Position numbers and translations under genes: made by a program | In this document: one piece after another, positions 1,667 to 24,908 of the stretch | How the letters are laid out: every line of letters begins with the position of its first letter | Numbering within the stretch: position 1 is the first letter of the stretch | DNA from: a virus | Direction: 5' to 3' (one strand) | Length of the DNA stretch: 29,059 nt | Virus record (IMG/VR): IMGVR_UViG_3300027413_000025 | Notes under the pieces: model-generated | Databases searched by the model: none | What the model was told of the DNA's origin: nothing | Seen by the model: the letters and a program-made list of their open reading frames with translations, nothing else

Positions 1667-3397
1667 ATGGCGTCAATCCTGGATCGTTTTACCAATTTAT
1701 TAAAAAAAAATACACAACAAACCGCAGCCGATTATAACAAATCGATTTATAATTGGTTAGGTAATTCAATCGTTTGGAATACTGAAAACGACAATTCTTA
1801 TATTACCGAGGGTTATCAAAAGAATTCAACGATTTATTCTTTAATCAATTTAATTACAAAGGCAGCAACAACAATTCCGTTCCAGGTTTACGAAAAGACA
1901 AACGAAAACGATTATAAAAGATACAAGGCATTGACGTCCGGGATCATGGATTCGTCAACAATACAAAAAGCGGCAATGCTGCAAAAAAGATCGTTGATTG
2001 AATTACATGAAACGGAATTACATAAAATATTAGAACGACCAAATCCGGCGCAAAGTTATAATTCGTTTATGACTGAATTGATCGCGTTCGGTAAATTAAC
2101 CGGGAATCGTTACATTTATGGAATAGGACCGGAAACCGGATCAAATACAAAATATTCCGAATTATACGTCATGCCGTCTCAAATAATGGAAATCGTTTCC
2201 GGAGGGATCATGAAGCCGGTTGATCATTATACTATCGAATATAACGGACAACATAAAATCCCGGCGGAATCAATTTGTCACATAAAAGATTTTAATCCGC
2301 ATTATGACGGGAGCGGATCTCATTTATACGGACAATCGCCATTGAGGGCCGGTTTACGATCATTGACAACAAACAATGAAGCCGTTCAAACCGGAGTTAA
2401 ATATCTACAAAACCAAACGGCGAGGGGATTATTAATGTCCGACGAGGGCGATATTAATGAAGTTCAAGCGAAACAACTAAAAGAAAAATTCAAACAACAA
2501 CATCAAGGATCAAACAATGCCGGGGATATTATTATAACTCCGAAAAAATTATCATGGGTAAATTTTGGATTAAACGCGTCGGACGTTTCTTTGATTGAGC
2601 AATACAATGCGAGTATTAAAGATTTATGTAATATTTACAACGTTCCCGTTCAATTGTTAAATAATACCGATTCAAGTTCCTATAATAACATGAAAGAGGC
2701 GAAAAAAGCATTGTATCAATCGTGCGTTATTCCCGAATTGTTAAAGATTAAAGACGAATTAAATCGTTGGTTGGCGCCAAAGTATGGCGAAAATCTTTGT
2801 ATTGAATTTGATTTTTCAGTTATTCCGGAATTGCAAGAGGAAACGGACAAGATCGTTGATCAGTTATTAAAGGCCTGGTGGATTACGCCAAACGAAAAAA
2901 GGGCCGCAATGAATTACGGACGTGATGACGAAAATATAAATCTTGACGATTATTATATTCCGTCAAACTTAATTCCGGTCAAAGGGATCGACGAATTGGA
3001 AATCCCGGTTGAATCAATCGACGTTGACGTTGATAAATTTTTCAGCAAAAAAGAAACAATAATAAAAGATCAAACGTTTGACAATTATCCGCAAACCGCA
3101 ACAAACAACGCCAAAAGGATGATCGAATGGCGTGAAAAATACAAAGACGAAGTCAAGGCGGGAACGCCAACGGGTTGGAGACGCGCAACAATGTTGTCGA
3201 ATAGAGATCCTTTGACGATTGAAATGTTAAATCGAGTTAAATCATTTTTTTCGAGACATGACGGGAATCAAGTTATTTCGGATCAGTACAAGGAAACGCC
3301 ATGGAAAGACAATGGATTTGTTTCCTGGAATCTTTGGGGAGGGACTGCAATGAAAATTTGGACCGAAAAAACATTGGACAAGATAAACAAAGAATAA
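1667..3397 (+). CDS. Portal protein (HK97-family Phage_portal) with a ~105-aa C-terminal add-on domain
   Basis: Position after terL and a length of 576 aa. Portal-like core (LIAFGKLTGNRYIYG, PLRAGL..L, NVPVQLL). Extra C-terminal segment from about aa 470 (NNAKRMIEWREKY...WNLWGG). Confidence 0.85.
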   Translation: MASILDRFTNLLKKNTQQTAADYNKSIYNWLGNSIVWNTENDNSYITEGYQKNSTIYSLINLITKAATTIPFQVYEKTNENDYKRYKALTSGIMDSSTIQKAAMLQKRSLIELHETELHKILERPNPAQSYNSFMTELIAFGKLTGNRYIYGIGPETGSNTKYSELYVMPSQIMEIVSGGIMKPVDHYTIEYNGQHKIPAESICHIKDFNPHYDGSGSHLYGQSPLRAGLRSLTTNNEAVQTGVKYLQNQTARGLLMSDEGDINEVQAKQLKEKFKQQHQGSNNAGDIIITPKKLSWVNFGLNASDVSLIEQYNASIKDLCNIYNVPVQLLNNTDSSSYNNMKEAKKALYQSCVIPELLKIKDELNRWLAPKYGENLCIEFDFSVIPELQEETDKIVDQLLKAWWITPNEKRAAMNYGRDDENINLDDYYIPSNLIPVKGIDELEIPVESIDVDVDKFFSKKETIIKDQTFDNYPQTATNNAKRMIEWREKYKDEVKAGTPTGWRRATMLSNRDPLTIEMLNRVKSFFSRHDGNQVISDQYKETPWKDNGFVSWNLWGGTAMKIWTEKTLDKINKE

Positions 3398-3400
3398 ATT

Positions 3401-4966
3401 TTGGAAATAAACCGCGACAAATGGCAAACGGAGTTTGAAAAAAACTTGGACAAAGCGGAACGAAAACAAATTTCAAAGGTCAAACGCTTTTATAAAAAAG
3501 AATATGACAAAGGAATTCAATCGTTTGTTTCGCAAGGTCAAACGTCTTTTAAATTATTGTTTGACGAAAAGGATCTTTTAAAAATTTATAGAGATCTATA
3601 TCAAGAAACCGGATTGCAATTCGCAAAATGGTATTCCGGAAACTTTAAAAAATTCATTAAAAAATCATTTGACAAAAATCAAATTGATATTTGGAAAAAT
3701 GCGTTTGGATCTTTTGGATCCGCAATGGGAGCGCAACGCGTGACGTTAGTAAAAGGGACCGCATTAAAAACGTTGCAAAGAATTACGCAACAATTAATTT
3801 CGGATCCGGAATTCATGACAATGGGATCGTCACAACAAGCCAGGATTTTAAGAAATCAATTTTCTTTATATTCACAACAACAAGCCGAAAGATTGGTCCG
3901 AACGGAAACAACCGCGGCCGCAAATTTTGCACAAAAAGAAGCAGCAAATTCAATTTTTCCAGGCGTACAAAAAGACAAGGTTTGGATCGCGGCATTCGAT
4001 GACCGCGTTCGCGATAGTCATGCAGCCGCAGACGGACAACAAGTCAAGGAAAACGATCTCTTTATTGTAGGAGGTCAACAAATGGCGTTTCCTGGAGATC
4101 CGGCCGGAGGCGCGGCCGAAGTTATAAATTGCCGTTGTTCGCATTATTACGTCCCAAGACAAGACGCCCAGGCAGCCGCCGGAATTGACGGATTTGCTTT
4201 GGGACTTGGCGGAGGATCCGCGACCGGATTTGGAATGATCGACGCAATTGCCGCCGTTGGATCAACATTGGTTTCGTCGGCGCAAAGAATGATTTCAGAC
4301 GCCGCAAAGACATTAAAAGAAGCAAAGAATCAATTGAATGATTTGTTTTCGCAATACGGATTTAATATTGACAAAATTACAATGAGTCGATCGTTAACCT
4401 TGGCGCAATACAATGAAAGGATTCAAGAATTGAAAAAATTAATGTCTCAATATAATTTTGGGACCGAGGCAAATTTACAACGGGCAATTATAATTTTAAA
4501 TAAATCAACAAGAGGCGCAAATGGATATGTTTCGAGTTTAAGAAATGGAGGTAATTTAACAAAAATTAATTTCGGGGATGAGGTTAATCGGTGGTCAAGT
4601 CGAAATCGAATTGTTTCAACCGAGGAATTTGTCAAACGATTCGGATCCGCCGTTGACGAAGCAAACAACCATTTGTCAACAATGATTCATGAAATGGCGC
4701 ATGTAATGGCAAGATCAAATGATCCAAGACATCGAGAATTTTTTAATAAATTAAAAGAAATAAGAGTTTCATATCGCGCGGATATTGCAAAATATCAACA
4801 AGCCAACAATTATAAGGCGTACAACGAAATATATTTGGGACGATACGCAAATCATGACATTGACGAATTTTTGGCCGAGGGTTGGACCGAATATCGTTTG
4901 AGTTCAAATCCGTCACAATATGCGCGTTTAATTGGCGAATTGATTGATCAAAACTTTAAATCTTAA
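3401..4966 (+). CDS. Minor head protein of the MuF / SPP1 gp7 family, fused to a C-terminal HExxH metallopeptidase-like domain
   Basis: MuF signature RTETTAAANFA...AAFDDRVRDSHAAADGQ...FPGDP...INCRCS. A Gly/Ala-rich linker follows, then HEMAH (nt 4688..4702) and DEFLAEGWTEY 55-60 aa downstream. The start is a TTG; no in-frame ATG occurs until deep inside the ORF. Confidence 0.8.
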   Translation: MEINRDKWQTEFEKNLDKAERKQISKVKRFYKKEYDKGIQSFVSQGQTSFKLLFDEKDLLKIYRDLYQETGLQFAKWYSGNFKKFIKKSFDKNQIDIWKNAFGSFGSAMGAQRVTLVKGTALKTLQRITQQLISDPEFMTMGSSQQARILRNQFSLYSQQQAERLVRTETTAAANFAQKEAANSIFPGVQKDKVWIAAFDDRVRDSHAAADGQQVKENDLFIVGGQQMAFPGDPAGGAAEVINCRCSHYYVPRQDAQAAAGIDGFALGLGGGSATGFGMIDAIAAVGSTLVSSAQRMISDAAKTLKEAKNQLNDLFSQYGFNIDKITMSRSLTLAQYNERIQELKKLMSQYNFGTEANLQRAIIILNKSTRGANGYVSSLRNGGNLTKINFGDEVNRWSSRNRIVSTEEFVKRFGSAVDEANNHLSTMIHEMAHVMARSNDPRHREFFNKLKEIRVSYRADIAKYQQANNYKAYNEIYLGRYANHDIDEFLAEGWTEYRLSSNPSQYARLIGELIDQNFKS

Positions 4967-5193: not shown

Positions 5194-5883
5194 ATGAATC
5201 AAATATTATACAAAGCGGCGCCCGTTGGCGAATTAATTGACGCGGACGAAAAGGCCGGAATTATAAAAGGTTACGGAAGTTATTTCGGGAATAAAGACTC
5301 GGACAATGACGTGATCATGAAAGGAGCGTATAAAAAAACAATTGCAGAAAACGGCGATCGAGTTAAATATTTGTATCAACATGACATGAATCAACCAATT
5401 GGAAAAATGACGGAGTTATACGAGGATGACAAAGGTTTGGTTTTTGTTGCAGAAATTGCAAAAACACAATTGGGAAAAGACGTTGTTGAATTAATGAAGT
5501 CCGGAGTTATTACAGAAAATTCGGTTGGTATAATGCCAATTCAAAAAACAAACAAAGACGGATTTCGTGAGATCAACGAAGTTAAACTTTACGAAATTAG
5601 CGCCGTTACATTGGCCGCAAATGATCAAGCCAAGATTTTGGATGTCAAGGGAAATATTGACGTTGAAAAACTTGCAAAAAGATATGATAATTTATCAAAA
5701 CTAATAAGAAAAGGAGAAATTTCCGACGACATGGGATTCGCCATTGAAGCGGAAATATTAAAGTTAAAATCATTATTTATTGAATTCACAAAGCCGACGG
5801 AAATCGTCACTTTGCCGAATGTTGAAATAAAAAACAATGATTCGGAAGTGTTAAACTATTTATTAAATTCATTAAAAAATTAA
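5194..5883 (+). CDS. Prohead (capsid maturation) protease, HK97 family (S78/U35)
   Basis: GYGSYFGNKDSDNDVIMKGAYKKTI...VKYLYQHD...PIGK pattern, located immediately upstream of the major capsid gene. Confidence 0.85.
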   Translation: MNQILYKAAPVGELIDADEKAGIIKGYGSYFGNKDSDNDVIMKGAYKKTIAENGDRVKYLYQHDMNQPIGKMTELYEDDKGLVFVAEIAKTQLGKDVVELMKSGVITENSVGIMPIQKTNKDGFREINEVKLYEISAVTLAANDQAKILDVKGNIDVEKLAKRYDNLSKLIRKGEISDDMGFAIEAEILKLKSLFIEFTKPTEIVTLPNVEIKNNDSEVLNYLLNSLKN

Positions 5884-5887
5884 AAAA

Positions 5888-7072
5888 ATGGACGATAAAA
5901 TGAAAGACCAATTGGATTCAATAAGCAAATCCATTGATCAAAAAATTGAAACGAGTAATATTGAGATCGTTGAAACTTTAGTTGCAAAAACAAATGACGT
6001 TGTTGCGACAGAGGTTAAATCAATTAGCGACAATATTAATCAAAGACTTGATGCGATAGAAGTATCAAACAAAAAGAATTTCAGTTCGCCAAAGAGAGCA
6101 ACGTTTAAAAATGCTTTAAAAGAAGCATTGGACAACGGCGCAATTGAGGGACTGCAAAAGGGATTGGATTCCAACGCGAGATTTGTTGTAAAAGCAAACA
6201 TGACGACGGGAGCGGATTTTACCGGAGAAGTAATTCCGGCGAGTAGAGTTGACGGATATAAATTTGATCCAACAAGTCCAACGCACATAAGACAATTATT
6301 GGCACAAGGAAGCACACAAAGCGACGTTGTTCGTTACGTTAAAGAATCGTCGTATTCAAACGGATCAGCAGCAAAAGCAGAGGGAGCGGAATTGAATCAA
6401 AGTGACTTTGATATGACGGCGGTTGACGCAAACGTTAGAAAAATCGGGACTTATTTCCGAATTTCTGAAGAAATGTTAGCAGATACTCCACAATTGACAA
6501 GTTATATTTCAGCAAGAGCGCCGGAAAAACTTATGCAAGTTGAGGACGATCAAATATTGAACGGAAACGGATCATCGCCGAATTTATCCGGAATTATTAC
6601 GGACGCGGCGTCATTTAGTGCCGGAGATTTAGCAAATTCTGTTGAAAGTGCAAATGAATTTGATGTTATTGTTGCAGCGTTAAACCAATTAGCAGCGTCT
6701 AATTATGAAGCCGATACAATTTTATTAAATCCAAGCGATTTTCACAAAATACTATTGTTAAAAGATTCGTCAAACAACTATTTAAAAGACCAAGTTTATA
6801 ACGGCATTTCGCCGGTATTTATGGGCGTTAAAGTTGTTCTTAATACTGCAATCTCGGCCGGAGATTTCCTAATCGGAAACTTTGGTGTTGGGACTCAATT
6901 GTGGGTTAGAGACGGAATCAACGTTGAGTTCTTTAAAGAGGACGGAATCAACGTCAGAGAGGGATTTGTAACAATCCGCGTTTCTGAAAGAGTTGCATTG
7001 ACCAACTATTTACCGAACGCATTCGTTGCCGGAGATTTCACAACTGCAAAAGCAGCATTGGAGACTCCATAA
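5888..7072 (+). CDS. Major capsid protein, HK97 fold, with an N-terminal coiled-coil delta/scaffold region
   Basis: 394 aa and follows the protease. LNGNGSSPNLSGII motif, with a C-terminal region typical of the Phage_capsid family. Confidence 0.9.
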   Translation: MDDKMKDQLDSISKSIDQKIETSNIEIVETLVAKTNDVVATEVKSISDNINQRLDAIEVSNKKNFSSPKRATFKNALKEALDNGAIEGLQKGLDSNARFVVKANMTTGADFTGEVIPASRVDGYKFDPTSPTHIRQLLAQGSTQSDVVRYVKESSYSNGSAAKAEGAELNQSDFDMTAVDANVRKIGTYFRISEEMLADTPQLTSYISARAPEKLMQVEDDQILNGNGSSPNLSGIITDAASFSAGDLANSVESANEFDVIVAALNQLAASNYEADTILLNPSDFHKILLLKDSSNNYLKDQVYNGISPVFMGVKVVLNTAISAGDFLIGNFGVGTQLWVRDGINVEFFKEDGINVREGFVTIRVSERVALTNYLPNAFVAGDFTTAKAALETP

Positions 7073-7096
7073 ATTCGGGATCAAAACCATGAAATG

Positions 7097-7129
7097 GGGA
7101 TCGCATTAATTTGCGGTCCCTTTTTTTTT
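7097..7129 (+). terminator. Rho-independent terminator after the capsid gene
   Basis: GGGATCGCA (7097-7105) pairs with TGCGGTCCC (7112-7120): 9 bp including one G-U, a 6-nt loop, then T9. Confidence 0.8.
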
Positions 7130-7155
7130 GATTAAATAAAAATTCATTATCTTTG
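7127..7155 (+). promoter_or_regulatory. Promoter: TTTG (7127-7130), 17-nt spacer, TATCTTTG (7148-7155)
   Basis: Bacteroidota -33/-7 architecture. No ORF follows it. Confidence 0.55.
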
Positions 7156-7159
7156 CATT

Positions 7160-7280
7160 GAACGTGTTGATCGGATCCGTTGTTGGAGTTTCCGGTCTTA
7201 GTTTTCCCAACTCAAGCCACGTTCACTTGAAAATCCTGGTTGGCCATTAATTTGGCTTTAATCGGGATTTTCTTCTTTTA
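7160..7280 (+). ncRNA. Candidate structured non-coding RNA 1 (about 120 nt, unclassified)
   Basis: No credible ORF. Helix TGAACGTG 7159-7166 / CACGTTCA 7218-7225 encloses GTTGG 7182-7186 / CCAAC 7207-7211. A second helix, GAAAATCC 7229-7236 / GGATTTTC 7265-7272, encloses GCCA 7243-7246 / TGGC 7253-7256 and is followed by a U-rich tail. Confidence 0.45.
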
Positions 7281-7316
7281 TTCCCTTTTAATTATAACTA
7301 TTCACTATTTATTTTT

Positions 7317-7328
7317 TTTGTATATTTG
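7317..7328 (+). promoter_or_regulatory. Promoter word TTTG-TATATTTG with no ORF downstream
   Basis: Exact member of the recurring TTTGTATnTTTG motif. Confidence 0.5.
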
Positions 7329-7332
7329 CAGA

Positions 7333-7552
7333 GTTCCGCCGAGTGGCTTGTCTTGTCAAAGAGGGCATTTCCGGCACGAAAATCCTCTTGTTTTCCGGCG
7401 GAGTAAAGTTTTGGAGTTAGAATCGTTAATGGCTTTGCAATGCAAATTGTACGGCCGCGATATTGTTTTGGGAGCGCCTTAAAATGTTCTCGAAACTTGT
7501 CAAATGCGATTTTGACTCCATTACGATTTTATAATGAGATCGGTTTTTTTTT
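7333..7552 (+). ncRNA. Candidate structured non-coding RNA 2 (about 220 nt, unclassified)
   Basis: Nested helices: TCCGCCG 7335-7341 / CGGCGGA 7396-7402; AAGAGG 7359-7364 / CCTCTT 7384-7389; a 14-bp helix 7412-7425 / 7507-7520 (2 G-U); TTAA(T)GGC 7426-7433 / GCCTTAA 7476-7482; hairpin TTTGC-AAT-GCAAA 7434-7446. It ends in a T-run at 7544-7552. By eye it is more GC-rich than its flanks. Confidence 0.5.
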
Positions 7553-7650
7553 CTACAAAACAACACGTTGATTTCCAGGAGGTTAAATAAAAATTGAAAA
7601 AATATTTTAAAAAAAACTAAAAAAATTCTTTTAAAAGTCAATAATGTTCT

Positions 7651-7658
7651 TATCTTTG
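7651..7658 (+). promoter_or_regulatory. -7 box TATCTTTG, with the leader AAAATTTTTATC abutting the ATG at 7693
   Basis: Motif match plus the conserved leader. Confidence 0.5.
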
Positions 7659-7692
7659 CATCAAACAAACATTAATAATTAAAATTTTTATC

Positions 7693-8100
7693 ATGCAAAC
7701 ATTAAACGAAACAACTCAAAAAGAAATCAGAACATTCAAAAAGAACGTATTATCAAATCTTGAAAGATCAATGATCGGAGATTTAAAAACAATCATTGAC
7801 GTTGTGAGATACAACGACACAAATCATTCATTGATCAACGCGTCAAATGTATCAACAAACTTTAACAGATTAGAAAATTTCATTTGCGGAATTTATGACG
7901 GGTTTTTATACAACAAAGGAATCAACAAGGAAATCAAAACAATCGAAGATTTTTTCAGATCAAACGAAACGGACGAAAAAGTTATGTTGTATCGAGTATT
8001 TTCAAGCGTTGAAAACCTTGTTAAAACAATAAACAATCGTTTGGATGAAATGCCAGGTTTTGAGATTTCAGAAAACGACGCACATGCGCAAAACTTTTAA
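7693..8100 (+). CDS. Hypothetical protein (135 aa), accessory-island gene
   Basis: Clean ORF with its own promoter, leader and terminator. No recognisable motif. Confidence 0.7.
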   Translation: MQTLNETTQKEIRTFKKNVLSNLERSMIGDLKTIIDVVRYNDTNHSLINASNVSTNFNRLENFICGIYDGFLYNKGINKEIKTIEDFFRSNETDEKVMLYRVFSSVENLVKTINNRLDEMPGFEISENDAHAQNF

Positions 8101-8359: not shown

Positions 8360-8485
8360 ATGGATTACTTAAATTATTTAGATCCGGCAAACGAGCCGGA
8401 GTTTGAATGTAGCGTTTGCGGACGTCCAATGAGCGAGGACAAGGGAGTTTGCTCAAATGTTTGTTTTGAAGCCGATATGTTATGA
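8360..8485 (+). CDS. Micro-ORF, 41 aa, zinc-ribbon-like (CxxC...CxxxC)
   Basis: Hand translation: MDYLNYLDPANEPEFECSVCGRPMSEDKGVCSNVCFEADML. Its stop overlaps the next start (ATGA). Confidence 0.45.
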   Translation: MDYLNYLDPANEPEFECSVCGRPMSEDKGVCSNVCFEADML

Positions 8486-8690: not shown

Positions 8691-9050
8691 ATGACCACGA
8701 ACATAATTGGTTGTATTGCCGAGTACAAATTTGCAGTTTTTGCAATGGAGCGCGGACTCCAAGTTTCATTCCCTTTATTAAATACGTCGCCTTATGATTG
8801 TATTGTCGAATCGAAAACCGGACTTTATAAAATACAAATTAAATCAGTCAAGAAAACCAGGAAAAACAATCGCGTTTTTTTAAGACATGCAGACGGAAAA
8901 TCTTATAAAAATAAAGACGTTGATTTTTTTGCGGTTTATTTTGAAAGAATGAATGGTTTCTTTATTTTCAGATATGCAGACGTCAAACAATCCGTCAAAT
9001 TAGATTCAAAGAAATATTTAAAAAATTTTAATAACTTTGCATTACTTTAA
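8691..9050 (+). CDS. Small free-standing PD-(D/E)xK nuclease (119 aa), resembling the I-Ssp6803I-type PDDEXK_5 family of homing-endonuclease-like proteins
   Basis: GCIAEYKFAVFAMERGLQVSFP...YDCIVE...YKIQIKS, i.e. E ... D ... (Q/E)xK in the spacing of that family. It has its own promoter and is flanked by terminators. Confidence 0.55.
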   Translation: MTTNIIGCIAEYKFAVFAMERGLQVSFPLLNTSPYDCIVESKTGLYKIQIKSVKKTRKNNRVFLRHADGKSYKNKDVDFFAVYFERMNGFFIFRYADVKQSVKLDSKKYLKNFNNFALL

Positions 9051-9132: not shown

Positions 9133-9339
9133 ATGAAAGTAAAATGTAAAACCACAATTTTAAGAGACGGAAAACGATTTGAAGCCGGAGACAAAATTGA
9201 TTTACCGGTTGCAATTGCTGCAAGTTGGATCAAAAAAGGTTTGGCGGAAAAAATATCCAAAAAACAAAATAAAGATCAGATCGAAACCAAGGAATTAAAG
9301 GTCGAACATGTTGAAATAAAAAGCGATGACGGAAATTAA
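9133..9339 (+). CDS. Hypothetical protein (68 aa), first gene of the connector operon
   Basis: The ATG at 9133 follows the conserved leader. The track start at 9091 lies inside the terminator loop. Confidence 0.55.
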   Translation: MKVKCKTTILRDGKRFEAGDKIDLPVAIAASWIKKGLAEKISKKQNKDQIETKELKVEHVEIKSDDGN

Positions 9340-9835
9340 AATCACACAAACCGGGAGCGTTGTCGTCGAGTTATCAGAAATCAAAAATTATTTAAGAATT
9401 GATTTTGATTATGACAACGATTTATTGGAGGCGATTTTATGGCAATCAACAATTTTTTGTGAAAATTATATTTCAAAAGATATTGTTGAAAAAACAAGAC
9501 TTTTATTTTTAAGCGAAACCGAAAAAAATATTCTTTTACCATTTGGACCGGTTAAACAAATTATTTCAATAGTTGACGAAAACGATGTCAACATTCCTTT
9601 TAAAATTTTAGGAATTAACAAAGAAAATATTGAATTTGATTCGCCAAAAAAAAATGTTTTTGTTAAATACGAAACGGAGGGGATCCGAAATTCATTAACA
9701 AAACAATCAATTTTGCAATTTGCCGCGACATTGTACGAAAACCGAGCGGATTTTGATCAAGATTCAAAAAGCGTCCAGGAAATACCAACAAAAGTCAAAA
9801 CACTTTTGACATCACTTAAAACAATGTTTATTTAA
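9326..9835 (+). CDS. Head-tail connector / DNA-packaging protein (gp6-like, Phage_connect_1)
   Basis: LSEIKNYLRIDFDYDNDLLEAILWQSTIFCENYI matches the classic N-terminal signature of this family. Synteny supports it. Confidence 0.8.
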   Translation: MTEIKITQTGSVVVELSEIKNYLRIDFDYDNDLLEAILWQSTIFCENYISKDIVEKTRLLFLSETEKNILLPFGPVKQIISIVDENDVNIPFKILGINKENIEFDSPKKNVFVKYETEGIRNSLTKQSILQFAATLYENRADFDQDSKSVQEIPTKVKTLLTSLKTMFI

Positions 9836-13594: not shown

Positions 13595-14002
13595 ATGGCT
13601 ACAACCGGAGTATTTAATGGAACAGATTTAGTTCTTGAAATTGAGGGAAACGTTATTGGACACACAACAAGTTGTTCATTATCATTATCACTTGACACAC
13701 CAGAGGCAACAACAAAAGATTCGGGAGGATTTTCGGAATTTATCGGAGGCGTTAGAGGCGGCGAAATCTCATTCGAGGGACTCGTTGCATACGACGACAC
13801 TTTAAATGCCGTAGAATTAGCGGATTACTTATTAAACAGAACAAGAATAACCGCAGTATTTGGAACGTCCGAAAGTGGAGACGTAATTTATACGGCAGAA
13901 TCTTTTTTATCGAGCGTTGAAGTTTCGGCAGAAATGGAAGCGGCGGTTTCTTATTCGGGAAGTTTAACAATTACCGGAGCGATCGTAAAATCTACCAACT
14001 AA
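13595..14002 (+). CDS. Major tail (tube) protein, TP901-1/phi13-like (Phage_tail_2)
   Basis: GTDLVLEIEGNVIGHTTSCSLSLSLDTPEATTKDSGGFSEFIGGVRGGEISFEGL pattern. Located upstream of the chaperone and tape measure genes. Confidence 0.8.
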   Translation: MATTGVFNGTDLVLEIEGNVIGHTTSCSLSLSLDTPEATTKDSGGFSEFIGGVRGGEISFEGLVAYDDTLNAVELADYLLNRTRITAVFGTSESGDVIYTAESFLSSVEVSAEMEAAVSYSGSLTITGAIVKSTN

Positions 14003-14842: not shown

Positions 14843-17641
14843 ATGTCAAGCCAGGAATTAAGAGTCAATTTAACCGGAAATTCGTCAAAATTAACGAGCG
14901 CATTATCAAGCGCGTCGGGAAAATTGGACGCATTCGGATCCAAAATGAAAAGTGTTGGATCAAGTATGACGGCGTCTTTGACTTTGCCTTTGGTTGCAGT
15001 CGCCGGAGCGGCCACAAAAATGGCTTTTGATTTTGACAAATCAATGGGCCAAATTGAATCGTTGGTTGGAATTGCCGGGGACAAGGTCAAACAAATGGGA
15101 GAAACGGCCAAAACAATGGCCGTCAATACCGGTAAAAGCGCAAATGAAGCGGCCGAGGCGTTGTTTTTTATAACGTCCGCCGGATTAAGAGGCGCAGACG
15201 CAACCGATACTTTAAACATGTCTTTAAAGGCGTCCGCAATAGGACTTGGAGAGACAAAACAAATTGCAGATTTAGCGACGTCCGCAATGAATGCTTATGG
15301 CGTTGAAAATATGAGCGCGTCCGCAGCAACCGACATAATGGTTGCAGCCGTTAGAGAGGGAAAATTGGAGGCGTCAGAGTTGGCCGGAGCAATGGGAGGC
15401 GTTATTCCGATTGCGTCAAACATGGGAGTTTCATTTGACGAAGTCGGCGCAGCAATGGCCGCAATGTCAAAAACCGGAACAAATGCAGCAACCGGAGCAA
15501 CACAATTGACCGCAATTTTAGCGAGTATAAAAAAACCAACGGCAGAAGCCGAGGCGGCATTCAATAAAATGGGATTGTCAACGCAAGACGTTCAAGCGTC
15601 GTTGGCGGATCAAGGTTTAATGTCAACACTCGAAATGCTGCAACAAGGTTTGCAAAAAACCGGACAAGATACAACCGCAATTTTTCCAAATATTAGAGCA
15701 TTAAAAGGAGTTTTGGATTTAACGGGAAAAGGGATCGAGGACAACAAAAAAGTTTTTGACGCATTGTCTCAATCAATGGGCGCAACCGATACCGCGTTTG
15801 AAAAAACGGCACAAACGGCGTCTTTTAAAATGGCCAAGGGAATGAATGCAATGAAAGAATCTTTGCATTCAGTCGGTCAAACAATCTTGACGTCAGTCGC
15901 TCCGACAATTGAAAAGTTAGGAAATTTTTTCACATCATTATCCGATAAATTTAAAAGTTTATCGCCGGAGACGCAAAAATTAATTATTGGTTTTGCCGCA
16001 GTCGTTGCAGCAATTGGACCGATCTTGGTCGTTTTGGGAACGCTTATGACAATGGCTCCGGCAATAGGCGCGGCAATCACAATGGCAACCGGTCCCGTTG
16101 GTTTGTTGGTTATAGCATTGGCAGCAGTTGCGGCCGTAATTGCTAAAAATTGGACTCCAATAAAAGCGGCATTGGTTAAAGTTGCTAATTATTTTATTGA
16201 GTTATACAATAACGCTTTGCCGGTCAAATTGATCGTTCAAGCGTTGATCATGCAATTTAAAAATACTTTAGCAACCGGAAAATTTGTTTTTAAAACTTTA
16301 GTCACAATATTAAAAGCATTCGGAAACGCTGCAATGGGTATTTTGGGAAGTTTAGGAGACATTTTAATGGGTATTTTTACCCTTGACATGGGCAAAATAA
16401 AGTCCGGTTTTTCCGGAATTGGAGACGCATTGTCGAGCAATTTATCAAAAGCATTTGACGAAATCGGACAACATGCGTCGGATCTTGGATCAGATGTTGC
16501 CGGAAATTTTAATGATGCATTAAATGCCGGTAAAATTGACAAAATAAAACTTGAAACCGAAACAAGCGAAAAACAAACAACCGAAGTTGAAACAAGTACA
16601 ACAACAGACGCGCCGAGTACAACTCCAGGATCAACAGATTACACCATAAAACCGGCGATTGATCCGGATGCAGCCGCAAAAATTGCAGCGGTTCAACAAG
16701 AAATCAACAACGCTTTAGTCACAAACGACGCGGCCGCCTATGTTGCAAGAAAAGCCGAAGCGACAAAATATTACGACGATTTAATTGCTCAAACAACGGA
16801 GGGATCCGCGCAAGAAATTGCATTGCAACAAGCAAAATCGGCGACATTGGGACAATTAGAAGCCGACGAAAACGCCCGAATGTTGGACGTTAAACAACAA
16901 ATTCTTGATGCAACAAACGCGTCAGAGGAACAACAACAAGCGCTTGAAAAGGAACGCATTGCATTGCATTACGAGGAATTACGAGCAATGGCCGAGGAAA
17001 ACGGATTAATGACCGCAGAAATGAGAGCGGAATTTGACGAAGCCGAAAAGGAGGCACAAATGGCCGTTTATGAGGAAAAAAAGGTCATGTTTATGGGATT
17101 TATGATGACGATGTCAGAGGCCGAAACATTGATGCAAGGAATCGGAACGCAAATTGACGGCGCGTTTGGACAAATAGGAAATTCAATTACGAACGCTTTA
17201 GGAGGCGCAGAATCCGCAATGGGCGCTTTTGTTGGTACACTTGCAAAAGATGCTTTAAAAATAATCGGACATAATTTATCGGTTTCCATGACCAACTCAA
17301 TAACGGGAGCAACCGAATCCGCGAAATCATTCGGACCGGCGGCGGCCTTTGTTTTACCGGCATTAATTGCCGGAGCAACGGCGTTGATTTCAAGTTCGTT
17401 TTCAAAATTTGCGGCCGGTGGTATTGTTAGCGGTCCGACAATGGGACTTGTTGGAGAATATCCAGGAGCAAAATCAAATCCGGAAGTTATTGCGCCATTA
17501 AATAAATTGCAAGGAATGTTGGCAGATAATGGAGGCGGCGGAGGTGGTCAAGTGAATATTGTTGGCGATGTTAGACTTGACGGGCAAGATCTTTTGATTG
17601 CGTTTGAAAGAGCAAACGAAACGGCCGAAAGAATATATTAA
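14843..17641 (+). CDS. Tail tape measure protein (932 aa)
   Basis: Size and position. TP901-type core (SAMNAYG..., Ala/Gly-rich helical repeats), internal TM-like segments and coiled coils. Confidence 0.9.
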   Translation: MSSQELRVNLTGNSSKLTSALSSASGKLDAFGSKMKSVGSSMTASLTLPLVAVAGAATKMAFDFDKSMGQIESLVGIAGDKVKQMGETAKTMAVNTGKSANEAAEALFFITSAGLRGADATDTLNMSLKASAIGLGETKQIADLATSAMNAYGVENMSASAATDIMVAAVREGKLEASELAGAMGGVIPIASNMGVSFDEVGAAMAAMSKTGTNAATGATQLTAILASIKKPTAEAEAAFNKMGLSTQDVQASLADQGLMSTLEMLQQGLQKTGQDTTAIFPNIRALKGVLDLTGKGIEDNKKVFDALSQSMGATDTAFEKTAQTASFKMAKGMNAMKESLHSVGQTILTSVAPTIEKLGNFFTSLSDKFKSLSPETQKLIIGFAAVVAAIGPILVVLGTLMTMAPAIGAAITMATGPVGLLVIALAAVAAVIAKNWTPIKAALVKVANYFIELYNNALPVKLIVQALIMQFKNTLATGKFVFKTLVTILKAFGNAAMGILGSLGDILMGIFTLDMGKIKSGFSGIGDALSSNLSKAFDEIGQHASDLGSDVAGNFNDALNAGKIDKIKLETETSEKQTTEVETSTTTDAPSTTPGSTDYTIKPAIDPDAAAKIAAVQQEINNALVTNDAAAYVARKAEATKYYDDLIAQTTEGSAQEIALQQAKSATLGQLEADENARMLDVKQQILDATNASEEQQQALEKERIALHYEELRAMAEENGLMTAEMRAEFDEAEKEAQMAVYEEKKVMFMGFMMTMSEAETLMQGIGTQIDGAFGQIGNSITNALGGAESAMGAFVGTLAKDALKIIGHNLSVSMTNSITGATESAKSFGPAAAFVLPALIAGATALISSSFSKFAAGGIVSGPTMGLVGEYPGAKSNPEVIAPLNKLQGMLADNGGGGGGQVNIVGDVRLDGQDLLIAFERANETAERIY

Positions 17642-24002: not shown

Positions 24003-24908
24003 ATGAAAGTCAATAAAATTTATAAACCAAAAAAGTTTTCGAGATTTACAATAATTCCGAATTCAATATTTAGAAACAAAGGAATTTCAGCAGCCGCAAC
24101 CGGACTTTATTGTTGGCTTTTTTCACATACCGACGACGCGGAAATTTGTATCAAATTCATTTGCGGCCATTTTAAGGAGGGAAAAGACGCAATTAATAAA
24201 AGGATCAAGGAATTGTCAGATCTTGGATATTTGGATCGCCAGGAGGTCCGAAACAAGGGAAAATTTGCCGGTTACAATTATTATTTAAGCACAAAACCAA
24301 GTTTAACCGCAACCGGAAAAACCGCAGCCGCAAAAACCGCGACGGAAAAACCGGCGCCGGTAAATCCGCAACAAAGTAATACTATTAATAAAGAAATAAT
24401 AAAAGAAGTAAAAGACAATAAAACAAAATCGCCAATTTATAATGATAATTTAAAAAAGGCGTTTCCGTTTTTTGTCGATTTATTTCCAAAACAATATCAA
24501 CCAAAAACAAAAAATCAAATTAACAAATGGATTGATTGTCTTGATAAAATTGAAAGACTTGATAAATATAATTTAAAGGATGTTTATATTGTTTCAAAGA
24601 ATTTAAGAAATGATCAGTTTTGGCAAAAGAATTTTTTATCAATTTTAAAATTTAGGAATATAGATAAAAACGGGATTAAATACATTGATCGTTTTATGCT
24701 TGATCATAAATCAAAACAAAAACCGATTGCATTTGAAAAGATTAAAAACTTGGTTGATTTTTTTGTTTATAGAAGTCCAACAACGGGCGAAAAAGAAATC
24801 GGAGCAAATACAAAATCCGGAAAAATTCATGAGTTTAATATTAAACAAACATTGCAATCAAATGAATTTGACGAATTAAAAAATTGGATCTTAAATGGAA
24901 ATAAATAA
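24003..24908 (+). CDS. Replication initiator-like protein (N-terminal winged-helix/HTH_36-like domain)
   Basis: FTIIPNSIFRNKGISAAATGLYCWLFSH...INKRIKELSDLGYLDRQEVRNKGKFAGYNYYL. Confidence 0.55.
   Translation: MKVNKIYKPKKFSRFTIIPNSIFRNKGISAAATGLYCWLFSHTDDAEICIKFICGHFKEGKDAINKRIKELSDLGYLDRQEVRNKGKFAGYNYYLSTKPSLTATGKTAAAKTATEKPAPVNPQQSNTINKEIIKEVKDNKTKSPIYNDNLKKAFPFFVDLFPKQYQPKTKNQINKWIDCLDKIERLDKYNLKDVYIVSKNLRNDQFWQKNFLSILKFRNIDKNGIKYIDRFMLDHKSKQKPIAFEKIKNLVDFFVYRSPTTGEKEIGANTKSGKIHEFNIKQTLQSNEFDELKNWILNGNK

Follow-up and report, generated by a model that had tools for sequence, protein, structure and literature searches.

Unit B, a candidate structured RNA gene in a post-capsid cassette of uncultured marine phages

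We analysed IMG/VR virus record IMGVR_UViG_3300027413_000025, a stretch of 29,059 nucleotides (nt; hereafter the window) that approximates a complete phage genome of about 29 kb. Our subject is unit B, a segment of the + strand behind the capsid gene that runs from a promoter word at 7317 to a run of nine T residues ending at 7552. The evidence from sequence comparison and folding argues that unit B is probably an expressed, selected, stand-alone structured RNA gene. Transcription would start near 7334 at a promoter of the type used by the structural operons and would end at about 7552, at a hairpin followed by T9. The product would be a highly folded RNA of about 215 nt with two domains. The gap that holds unit B contains a further unit, unit A, which carries no open reading frame (ORF) and lies upstream of it. 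Units A and B are best read as a two-RNA, moron-like cassette, bounded by the capsid terminator on one side and the next gene's promoter on the other. Transcription, the transcript ends, late expression and action in trans are what we infer from these features of the DNA.

Fold of unit B and its conservation

The RNA of 7329-7552 on the + strand folded with a minimum free energy (MFE) of -77.3 kcal/mol (z-score -4.64), and none of 200 shuffled sequences was as stable. Its reverse complement reached -44.1 kcal/mol (z -0.77); the structure is specific to the + strand. Unit B is also richer in G+C than its surroundings (0.38-0.43 against 0.15-0.29 in the 7550-7700 spacer), in line with a judgement made by eye in the preliminary description of this DNA.

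Domain 1 of the predicted fold (7334-7403) consists of P1, a helix of 8 base pairs (bp; 7334-41/7396-7403), enclosing P2, a 7-bp helix (7359-65/7383-89) with a 17-nt loop. In domain 2 (7404-7520), the 14-bp helix P3 (7412-25/7507-20), which includes two G-U pairs, encloses two hairpins. P4 (7431-34/7453-56 and 7436-41/7446-51) is capped by the GNRA loop GCAA at 7442-45, and P5 is a 12-bp hairpin (7465-76/7485-96, with its base at 7459-62/7498-7501) that presents the loop CCUUAAAA at 7477-84. P1, P2 and P3 all belong to the MFE structure and correspond to three of the five helices that had been proposed for this segment. TCCGCCG 7335-41/7396-7402 and AAGAGG 7359-64/7384-89 are in fact 8 bp and 7 bp long, respectively, whilst the 14-bp helix with its two G-U pairs stands as drawn. 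The two proposed inner pairings, TTAA(T)GGC/GCCTTAA and TTTGC-AAT-GCAAA, had to be given up. Their complementary strings exist, but the pairings lie outside the MFE structure, where the GNRA-capped hairpin (7431-7456) and the 12-bp hairpin (7465-7496) replace them, and they are broken in L001, the closest relative that carries the cassette. The predicted terminator (7524-7552) is formed by an 8-bp hairpin, CGAUUUUA-UAA-UGAGAUCG at 7524-7542, followed by a G and by the T9 run at 7544-7552, which had been noted correctly.

Comparison with L001 gave the main evidence for selection on this fold. Unit B of the window and of L001 differ at 24 aligned positions, four of which represent an offsetting 1-nt insertion and deletion, and by a 2-nt deletion. 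Domain 1 has a single change (98.6% identical) and domain 2 is 82.1% identical; for the same pair of genomes the third codon positions of the capsid gene are 90.9% identical and the flanking spacers 94-96%. L001 unit B nevertheless folds at -75.9 kcal/mol, against -77.3 kcal/mol in the window. As a control, 500 random mutants of the window sequence over the same span were each given 20 substitutions, a 2-nt deletion, a 1-nt insertion and a 1-nt deletion. These mutants folded at -59.6 +/- 4.9 kcal/mol and only 0.2% were as stable as L001 (0.25% in an earlier run with 24 substitutions). As far as predicted stabilities go, the near-equal stability of L001 despite its divergence shows that selection has preserved the fold of unit B.

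The individual changes can be followed helix by helix. Over the two sequences 97.4% of helix cells are paired, with six pairs varying on one side and one on both. Three helix cells in all are unpaired, each at a helix end beside a loop, and one of them results from changes inside P3-P5. Both G-U pairs of P3 become C-G and A-U in L001. P4 shows a compensatory change from C-G to U-A together with one from G-U to A-U, and its tetraloop remains of the GNRA type (GCAA to GUAA). In P5, U-G becomes U-A and G-C becomes G-U under an identical loop, and in the terminator one U-A pair becomes U-G with 6 bp kept. The preliminary description had argued from the G-U pairs of P3 that the element folds only as + strand RNA. 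The strand preference is borne out, the + strand of L001 being still 16 kcal/mol more stable than its - strand, but the argument from the G-U pairs falls, since both are Watson-Crick pairs in L001.

Unit B contains no conserved ORF, in agreement with the earlier statement that no credible ORF follows the promoter. The longest ORFs on the + strand are 7240-7482 (80 amino acids (aa), TTG start, beginning upstream of the promoter) and 7440-7571 (43 aa), and neither has a Pfam match. In L001 the first is frameshifted by two single-base indels and the second has its ATG changed to TAA and is frameshifted by the 2-nt deletion. A 26-aa ORF with a TTG start begins within the -7 box and has neither a counterpart nor a shared peptide in L081, the third lineage described below. 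That unit B encodes a small protein is thus highly improbable, although ORFs of 25-43 aa are present on its + strand. Known RNA families were not recognised either. Rfam 15 at gathering thresholds gave no hit in the whole window, and its E-value mode on 7050-7720 gave a best score of 19.4 bits against a family threshold of 78. The families covered include 6S-Flavo, Flavo-1, IMES, pRNA, Y RNA-like, riboswitches and small ribozymes. ARAGORN found no transfer RNA (tRNA) or transfer-messenger RNA (tmRNA) gene in the window. The earlier failure to match unit B to a tRNA, a tmRNA or a known RNA family was thereby confirmed.

L081 is more divergent, with a capsid 89% identical to that of the window, and its gap has the order capsid terminator, promoter, structured unit A', promoter TTATATTTG, unit B', terminator, A-rich tract and next promoter. 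No blastn alignment was obtained between the units of the window and of L081, and Rfam gave only noise on the L081 gap. We regard the homology of domain 1 as secure. In unit B' the 8-nt CAUCAUGA lies 6 nt past the -7 box, the same box-to-P1 spacing as in the window, and pairs with UCUUGAUG to form P1, which is part of the MFE structure if folding begins at the inferred 5' end. Seven of its eight pairs are Watson-Crick, and five of the eight are changed on both sides relative to the window. P1 encloses AGAGGGC-N13-AAAUCCUCU, the core of P2, with the same 16 specified bases and the same spacing as in the window. This core is invariant across all three lineages, and the base pair below it changes from A-U in the window to G-C in L081. 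The pairs were counted by hand, as the MAFFT alignment on which the domain-1 covariance model (R1) was trained has the 3' strand of L081 P1 one column out.

Domain 2 of L081 is a long stem of 8 + 6 bp, unrelated in sequence, that encloses one hairpin with the 8-nt loop CCUCAAAA; P4 is not present. The loop CCUYAAAA is common to the window and L081 whilst the P5 stem differs. The relation between the two versions of domain 2 is architectural, resting on layout and the 8-nt loop, and we do not claim demonstrated homology. The terminator of L081 is likewise unrelated, a stronger hairpin (AAAGCCG-UUC-CGGCUUU) followed by U8. Unit B' folds with a z-score of -2.05 on the + strand and -0.48 on the - strand.

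Promoters, unit A and distribution of the cassette

The exact promoter word that had been reported at 7317-7328, TTTGTATATTTG, is present on the + strand and is the only exact copy in the window; its -7 box, TATATTTG, lies at 7321-7328. Six copies of the degenerate word TTYGTATWTTTR were counted (at 1632, 5168, 7317, 12148, 13550 and 14805), each on the + strand, against an expectation of 0.49, and none of 100 shuffles reached that number. The promoter word is non-random in the window. The other five copies stand 26-45 nt 5' of the ATGs of the portal gene, the protease gene, ORF 12178, ORF 13595 and the 932-aa ORF at 14843. The protease copy fronts the protease-capsid pair and the last three copies front ORFs downstream of the head module, which leaves the 7317 copy as the only one without an ORF behind it. 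Bacteroidota promoters have the -7 consensus TAnnTTTG, and we take the promoter-like boxes of the window to be of this type. The start of unit B would lie at about 7334, 6 nt past the -7 box. As the promoter word is common to the structural operons, unit B is probably expressed late. In TTYGTATWTTTR the TTTG directly adjoins the TAnnTTTG -7 box rather than sitting at -33, and TTYGTATWTTTR is found at the start of each structural-gene block; it may represent a phage-specific late promoter class.

Unit B had been placed directly after the capsid terminator, which is not the case. This intrinsic terminator (7096-7129, + strand; a 10-bp G+C-rich hairpin and T9, found by the terminator scan) forms the upstream boundary of the cassette and is kept in all relatives, with or without the cassette. 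Between it and unit B lies unit A (7160-7283 on the + strand, or 7148-7283 with its promoter box), an ORF-less second promoter-terminator unit of about 120 nt that is absent from the preliminary description. The gap of 620 nt between the capsid gene and ORF 7693-8100 (7073-7692) thus holds two units. Unit A has the putative promoter TTATCTTTGCAT at 7147-7158, with a TAnnTTTG -7 box at 7148-7155, and ORF 7693-8100 has the promoter TTATCTTTGCAT at 7650-7661, both on the + strand. The latter marks the downstream boundary of the cassette, and the former is nearly a copy of it (direct repeat D2, 7147-7163/7650-7666, 88% identity).

Unit A is predicted to fold on the + strand into a closing stem (7160-66/7218-24), two internal helices that cross each other (7169-74/7192-97 and 7182-86/7207-11) and a terminator hairpin (7229-41/7260-72) followed by a T-rich tail. 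The crossing helices model as a possible pseudoknot. The MFE is about -44.7 to -44.5 kcal/mol, with z-scores of -5.0 on the + strand and -2.8 on the - strand. L001 unit A keeps -43.1 kcal/mol despite 15 substitutions and 8 gap columns (18% divergence), whilst random mutants of unit A folded at -29.9 +/- 5.2 kcal/mol and 1% of them were as stable as L001. Stability of the - strand was not preserved (42%). Helix 7182-86/7207-11 shows a compensatory change in L001, from GUUGG/CCAAC to GUUGA/UCAAC.

Several repeats occur in and around the cassette. It is flanked by a perfect 9-bp inverted repeat, AACGTGTTG/CAACACGTT (7161-7169/7561-7569), which L081 does not have, and bracketed by a 13-nt direct repeat, TTAAATAAAAATT, at 7132-7144 and 7583-7595. 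The duplicated promoter TTATCTTTGCAT (7147-7163/7650-7666) makes a third bracketing pair, and the three pairs may be traces left when the cassette arose by insertion or duplication. The 9-mer GAAAATCCT occurs both on the 3' side of P2 (7378-7386) and in the 5' arm of the unit A terminator (7229-7237), with a third exact copy on the - strand at 13725-13734. Its sharing is probably due to chance, as 7 matches with at most one mismatch were found against 6.2 expected. Pairing between units A and B was considered and dropped: RNAduplex gave meaningless full-length duplexes, and an 8-bp complement (7213-20/7343-50) is partly lost in L001.

More than 1,500 relatives of the capsid were found. In 79 IMG/VR loci with capsids 67-78% identical (L002-L080), the next gene usually begins about 190 nt past the capsid terminator, and longer gaps hold small ORFs. 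In relatives without the cassette, nothing separates the capsid terminator from the A-rich tract that leads into the next promoter. Neither unit was found in L002-L080 by blastn, nhmmer or the domain-1 covariance model, and blastn and nhmmer searches of 80 IMG/VR relatives gave L001 as the sole match. R1, run over 0.5 Mb, found only the window, L001, L081 and L135. Pattern scans of IMG/VR, JGI metagenomes and 185,579 species genomes for the P2 motif, alone or combined with the promoter box or the P5 loop, returned only copies of the window or L001 type and chance matches, and the members of the capsid cluster held only the three known cassette types. These are the window type (the window, L082-85 and L128), the L001 type, with a capsid 96% identical to that of the window and a gap identical in six independently assembled loci (L001 and L130-L134, one of which is MK892646.1), and the L081/L135 type. 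Across the sequence collections searched, the cassette is confined to one small clade of uncultured marine phages with Bacteroidota-type promoters. Exchange of the cassette between near-identical phages was dropped as an explanation, the capsid of L135 being 99% identical to that of L081.

Other post-capsid gaps gave two side observations. In L053 (1330-1560; also in L071, L052 and L042, capsids 71-72% identical) a TATATTTG box stands after the capsid terminator, and about 220 nt of unrelated sequence without an ORF come next. This stretch ends in a hairpin and T6, has z-scores of -2.2 on the + strand and -0.3 on the - strand, and has no Rfam match. The post-capsid hotspot may carry RNA cargo repeatedly. 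Three short contigs from independent samples (L086, L087 and L088) stop at the base of the capsid terminator hairpin, 26-32 nt beyond the stop codon of the capsid gene. Such ends could reflect transcript-derived assemblies or an assembly break where lineages diverge.

The + strand carries every gene of the window. Library scans placed the large terminase (Terminase_3) at 439-1617 and a Phage_portal-type portal (PF04860) at 1667-3397, and a head-morphogenesis protein (3401-4966), a protease (5194-5883) and the HK97-type capsid (5888-7072) follow. A variable island of 2.2 kb separates the capsid gene from the head-tail adaptor (9326-9835), after which come the tail genes and, 3' of these, a replication module with a primase-helicase and nucleases. 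No integrase, reverse transcriptase, Cas protein, TnpB/IscB, RNA-guided nuclease or antiterminator was seen among the ORFs covered by the Pfam and PHROG scans, which took in part of the genome. Near-identical or identical contigs of 28.4-29.2 kb recur across many marine assemblies, one of them being GenBank MK892646.1 ('Prokaryotic dsDNA virus sp.'). No close phage isolate was found in GenBank, as distant-mode blastn of the 7073-7692 gap gave no match and the capsid is at most 35% identical to that of any isolate.

Two small genes lie further along the island. A 119-aa PD-(D/E)XK endonuclease of family PDDEXK_5 (8691-9050) sits within the head module, is kept across relatives and in these has its own hairpin and T-run terminator upstream. 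The family includes a group I intron-encoded homing endonuclease, and the protein could be a free-standing homing endonuclease that adds to the variability of the island. A 41-aa zinc-ribbon-like ORF (8360-8485; C-x2-C ... C-x3-C) is conserved downstream of the capsid island in many relatives, in the form MWGLD..PDDEPEFEC.VCG.

Candidate functions of unit B

In the reading we favour, unit B RNA would act in trans and not on neighbouring genes. Domain 1, with P1 closed around the invariant P2, would be the functional core, and domain 2 a probable scaffold or stability module that also presents the CCUYAAAA loop. A trans-acting RNA recognised by a partner fits with a hairpin conserved in sequence, with an 8-nt loop that is kept whilst its stem changes, and with a body whose fold is kept although its sequence changes no more slowly than synonymous-like sites. 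Recognition would be through P1-P2 and the P5 loop. Because so little of unit B is single-stranded, a protein partner is favoured, and we tentatively suggest that unit B could be a protein-binding decoy, sponge or cofactor. The functions proposed in the preliminary description (an anti-defence decoy, a regulatory RNA or an RNA component of an unknown system) are about evenly served by our results, none being decisively preferred.

A base-pairing small RNA (sRNA) is an alternative of nearly the same, likewise rather low, probability. It would use the P5 loop CCUYAAAA, the 3' part of the P2 loop (GAAAAU), or both, as a seed on host or phage messenger RNAs (mRNAs). Bacteroidota sRNAs expose their seeds in loops and have no Hfq. 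In keeping with this, unit B has its own predicted promoter and intrinsic terminator, a size and layout compatible with known sRNAs, and a loop whose sequence is conserved although the stem changes. However, about three quarters of its nucleotides are paired, which leaves no long single-stranded seed. ATTTTRAGG has a single further occurrence in the phage, which does not exceed chance, and the best match of unit B to phage mRNAs by complementarity is one 13-mer, inside helix P5. Action in cis, as a leader or attenuator gating the genes from 7693 onwards in the manner of the lambda PR'-6S-tR' region or a terminator riboswitch, is an unlikely reading of the layout. The promoter word is that of the structural operons, the transcript of about 215 nt would end in T9, the downstream genes all lie on the same strand, and the 5' arm of the terminator has a complement in AAAAUC (7380-85). 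Cis action is nevertheless disfavoured because a separate promoter, 100 nt past the terminator, serves the next gene and 140 nt separate T9 from ORF 7693, because about 75 relatives express that downstream module although they have no cassette, and because L081 has another gene in the downstream position (98 aa, against 135 aa in the window). In L081 the AAAAUC complementarity falls outside the terminator stem, so the alternative pairing is not conserved. Moreover, unit A has the same promoter-fold-terminator layout with no gene after it, and the Pfam scans, which took in part of the phage's ORFs, showed no antiterminator.

There is also little probability that the segment has no RNA function at all and is a structured spacer, the remnant of a decayed gene or a signal at the DNA level, for a primase or for packaging, whose folding is accidental. 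Its very narrow distribution and the fairly good fold of the L001 - strand (-59.8 kcal/mol) speak for such an origin. Domain 1, however, is more conserved than synonymous-like sites, the fold is kept despite 18% divergence in domain 2, and in two divergent lineages the promoter word precedes P1 by 6 nt; the - strand of the window has a z-score of only -0.77, and there is no protein similarity. An RNA anti-CRISPR or other mimic of a guide or repeat (Racr, rAcr) is quite unlikely. Unit B would be a small, autonomously transcribed structured phage RNA in an accessory island, and such RNAs exist, for example rAcrIIA1 (bioRxiv 10.64898/2026.06.03.729762). A segment of unit A (7179-7211) has GTTG...CAAC ends like Bacteroidota repeats, and type VI-B repeats have a core, UUUUGARGG, to which the P5 loop is complementary (PMC5395568). 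This resemblance is by reverse complement only and spans 8-14 nt (two Flavobacterium type VI-B repeats and the listed type II-C repeats; PMC5395568), however, and the repeat-like ends of unit A are altered in L001. Nothing in unit B resembles the guide layout of rAcrIIA1, and the genome scan of P2 with the promoter box, the only motif scanned, gave chance hits.

Several results count against a stand-alone RNA gene with the parts described here. The predicted terminator hairpin is weak (8 bp, A/U-rich, with 2 G-C pairs) and was not listed by the terminator scan, and both promoter and terminator are assigned at the level of consensus. In L081, P2 is not the MFE choice, the enforced P1 + P2 fold being 2.8 kcal/mol worse than the MFE, and a domain-2 covariance model built from the window and L001 fails to find domain 2 of L081. 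The 13-nt complementarity to phage mRNA, to ORF 24003-24908, is at chance level. Only three cassette sequence types exist in all collections searched, with which R-scape-type covariation is impossible, and a shuffle control of the pair counter on two sequences was uninformative (257/500). Because of the latter, we claim selection for stability and not significant covariation. For a family of three alleles the internal evidence is unusually good.

More speculatively, and with rather low probability, units A and B could be the first examples of a class of phage RNA effectors that has not been described before. They would be tandem 'RNA morons' whose expression accompanies that of the structural genes. 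If this were so, the fast-evolving bodies that keep their fold and the invariant P2 would reflect an arms race with a host factor. The RNAs might then, for example, serve virion assembly as a cofactor, or act as decoy or inhibitor on a marine Bacteroidota protein of defence or RNA degradation. A tightly packed marine phage genome of 29 kb devotes about 400 nt to these two predicted, independently transcribed RNAs. Should a partner be found, it would reveal a new RNA-based interaction in the biology of marine Bacteroidota phages and would mean that the post-capsid variable island, a hotspot in this family, carries RNA cargo besides small proteins. The testable lead is the combination of an invariant hairpin, a conserved loop and a body that equals or exceeds synonymous sites in its rate of change.

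Comparison with known systems

Unit B belongs to the broad kind of phage-encoded stand-alone structured RNAs. RNA-only phage effectors are newly recognised and few have been characterised, namely RNA anti-CRISPRs and a handful of sRNAs. Like the RNA anti-CRISPRs, which comprise the Racr solitary-repeat mimics and rAcrIIA1, a phage RNA that mimics a single guide RNA (bioRxiv 10.64898/2026.06.03.729762), unit B is a small, phage-encoded structured RNA in an accessory region with its own predicted transcription. Those RNAs act as decoys for host proteins, and units A and B have no demonstrated similarity to a CRISPR repeat or guide scaffold. Intergenic sRNAs have been mapped in B. thetaiotaomicron (PMC7366714) and resemble unit B in their promoter type (TAnnTTTG), in ending at an intrinsic terminator and in a possible seed within a loop. 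Unit B differs from them in being phage-borne and far more structured, and has no sequence or Rfam relationship to them.

Like unit B, the pRNA of the phi29 family (RF00044) is a tailed-phage RNA with two domains and a comparable length; its function is tied to head morphogenesis. Here, however, there is no Rfam hit, and the phage has a conventional Terminase_3 and Phage_portal (PF04860) in place of the phi29-type ATPase and connector. The late leader of lambda, PR'-6S RNA-tR', is subject to antitermination by Q. It shares with unit B a late-type promoter and an ORF-less transcript of about 200 nt that ends at a terminator (a strong one in lambda) upstream of genes on the same strand. In our phage, by contrast, the downstream gene has its own promoter, relatives dispense with the cassette, and no Q-like factor was seen among the ORFs scanned.

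Morons are autonomous promoter-gene-terminator units between conserved genes, first described for HK97 and lambdoid phages. The cassette differs from them in that its predicted payload is RNA and not protein and that two units stand in tandem. No integrase was seen among the scanned ORFs either, so that the rationale of lysogenic conversion is not obviously applicable. In other respects the likeness is close to the definition itself: the cassette has its own promoter and terminator, as predicted at consensus level, and lies between conserved landmarks of the head module in a place where otherwise collinear relatives lack it.

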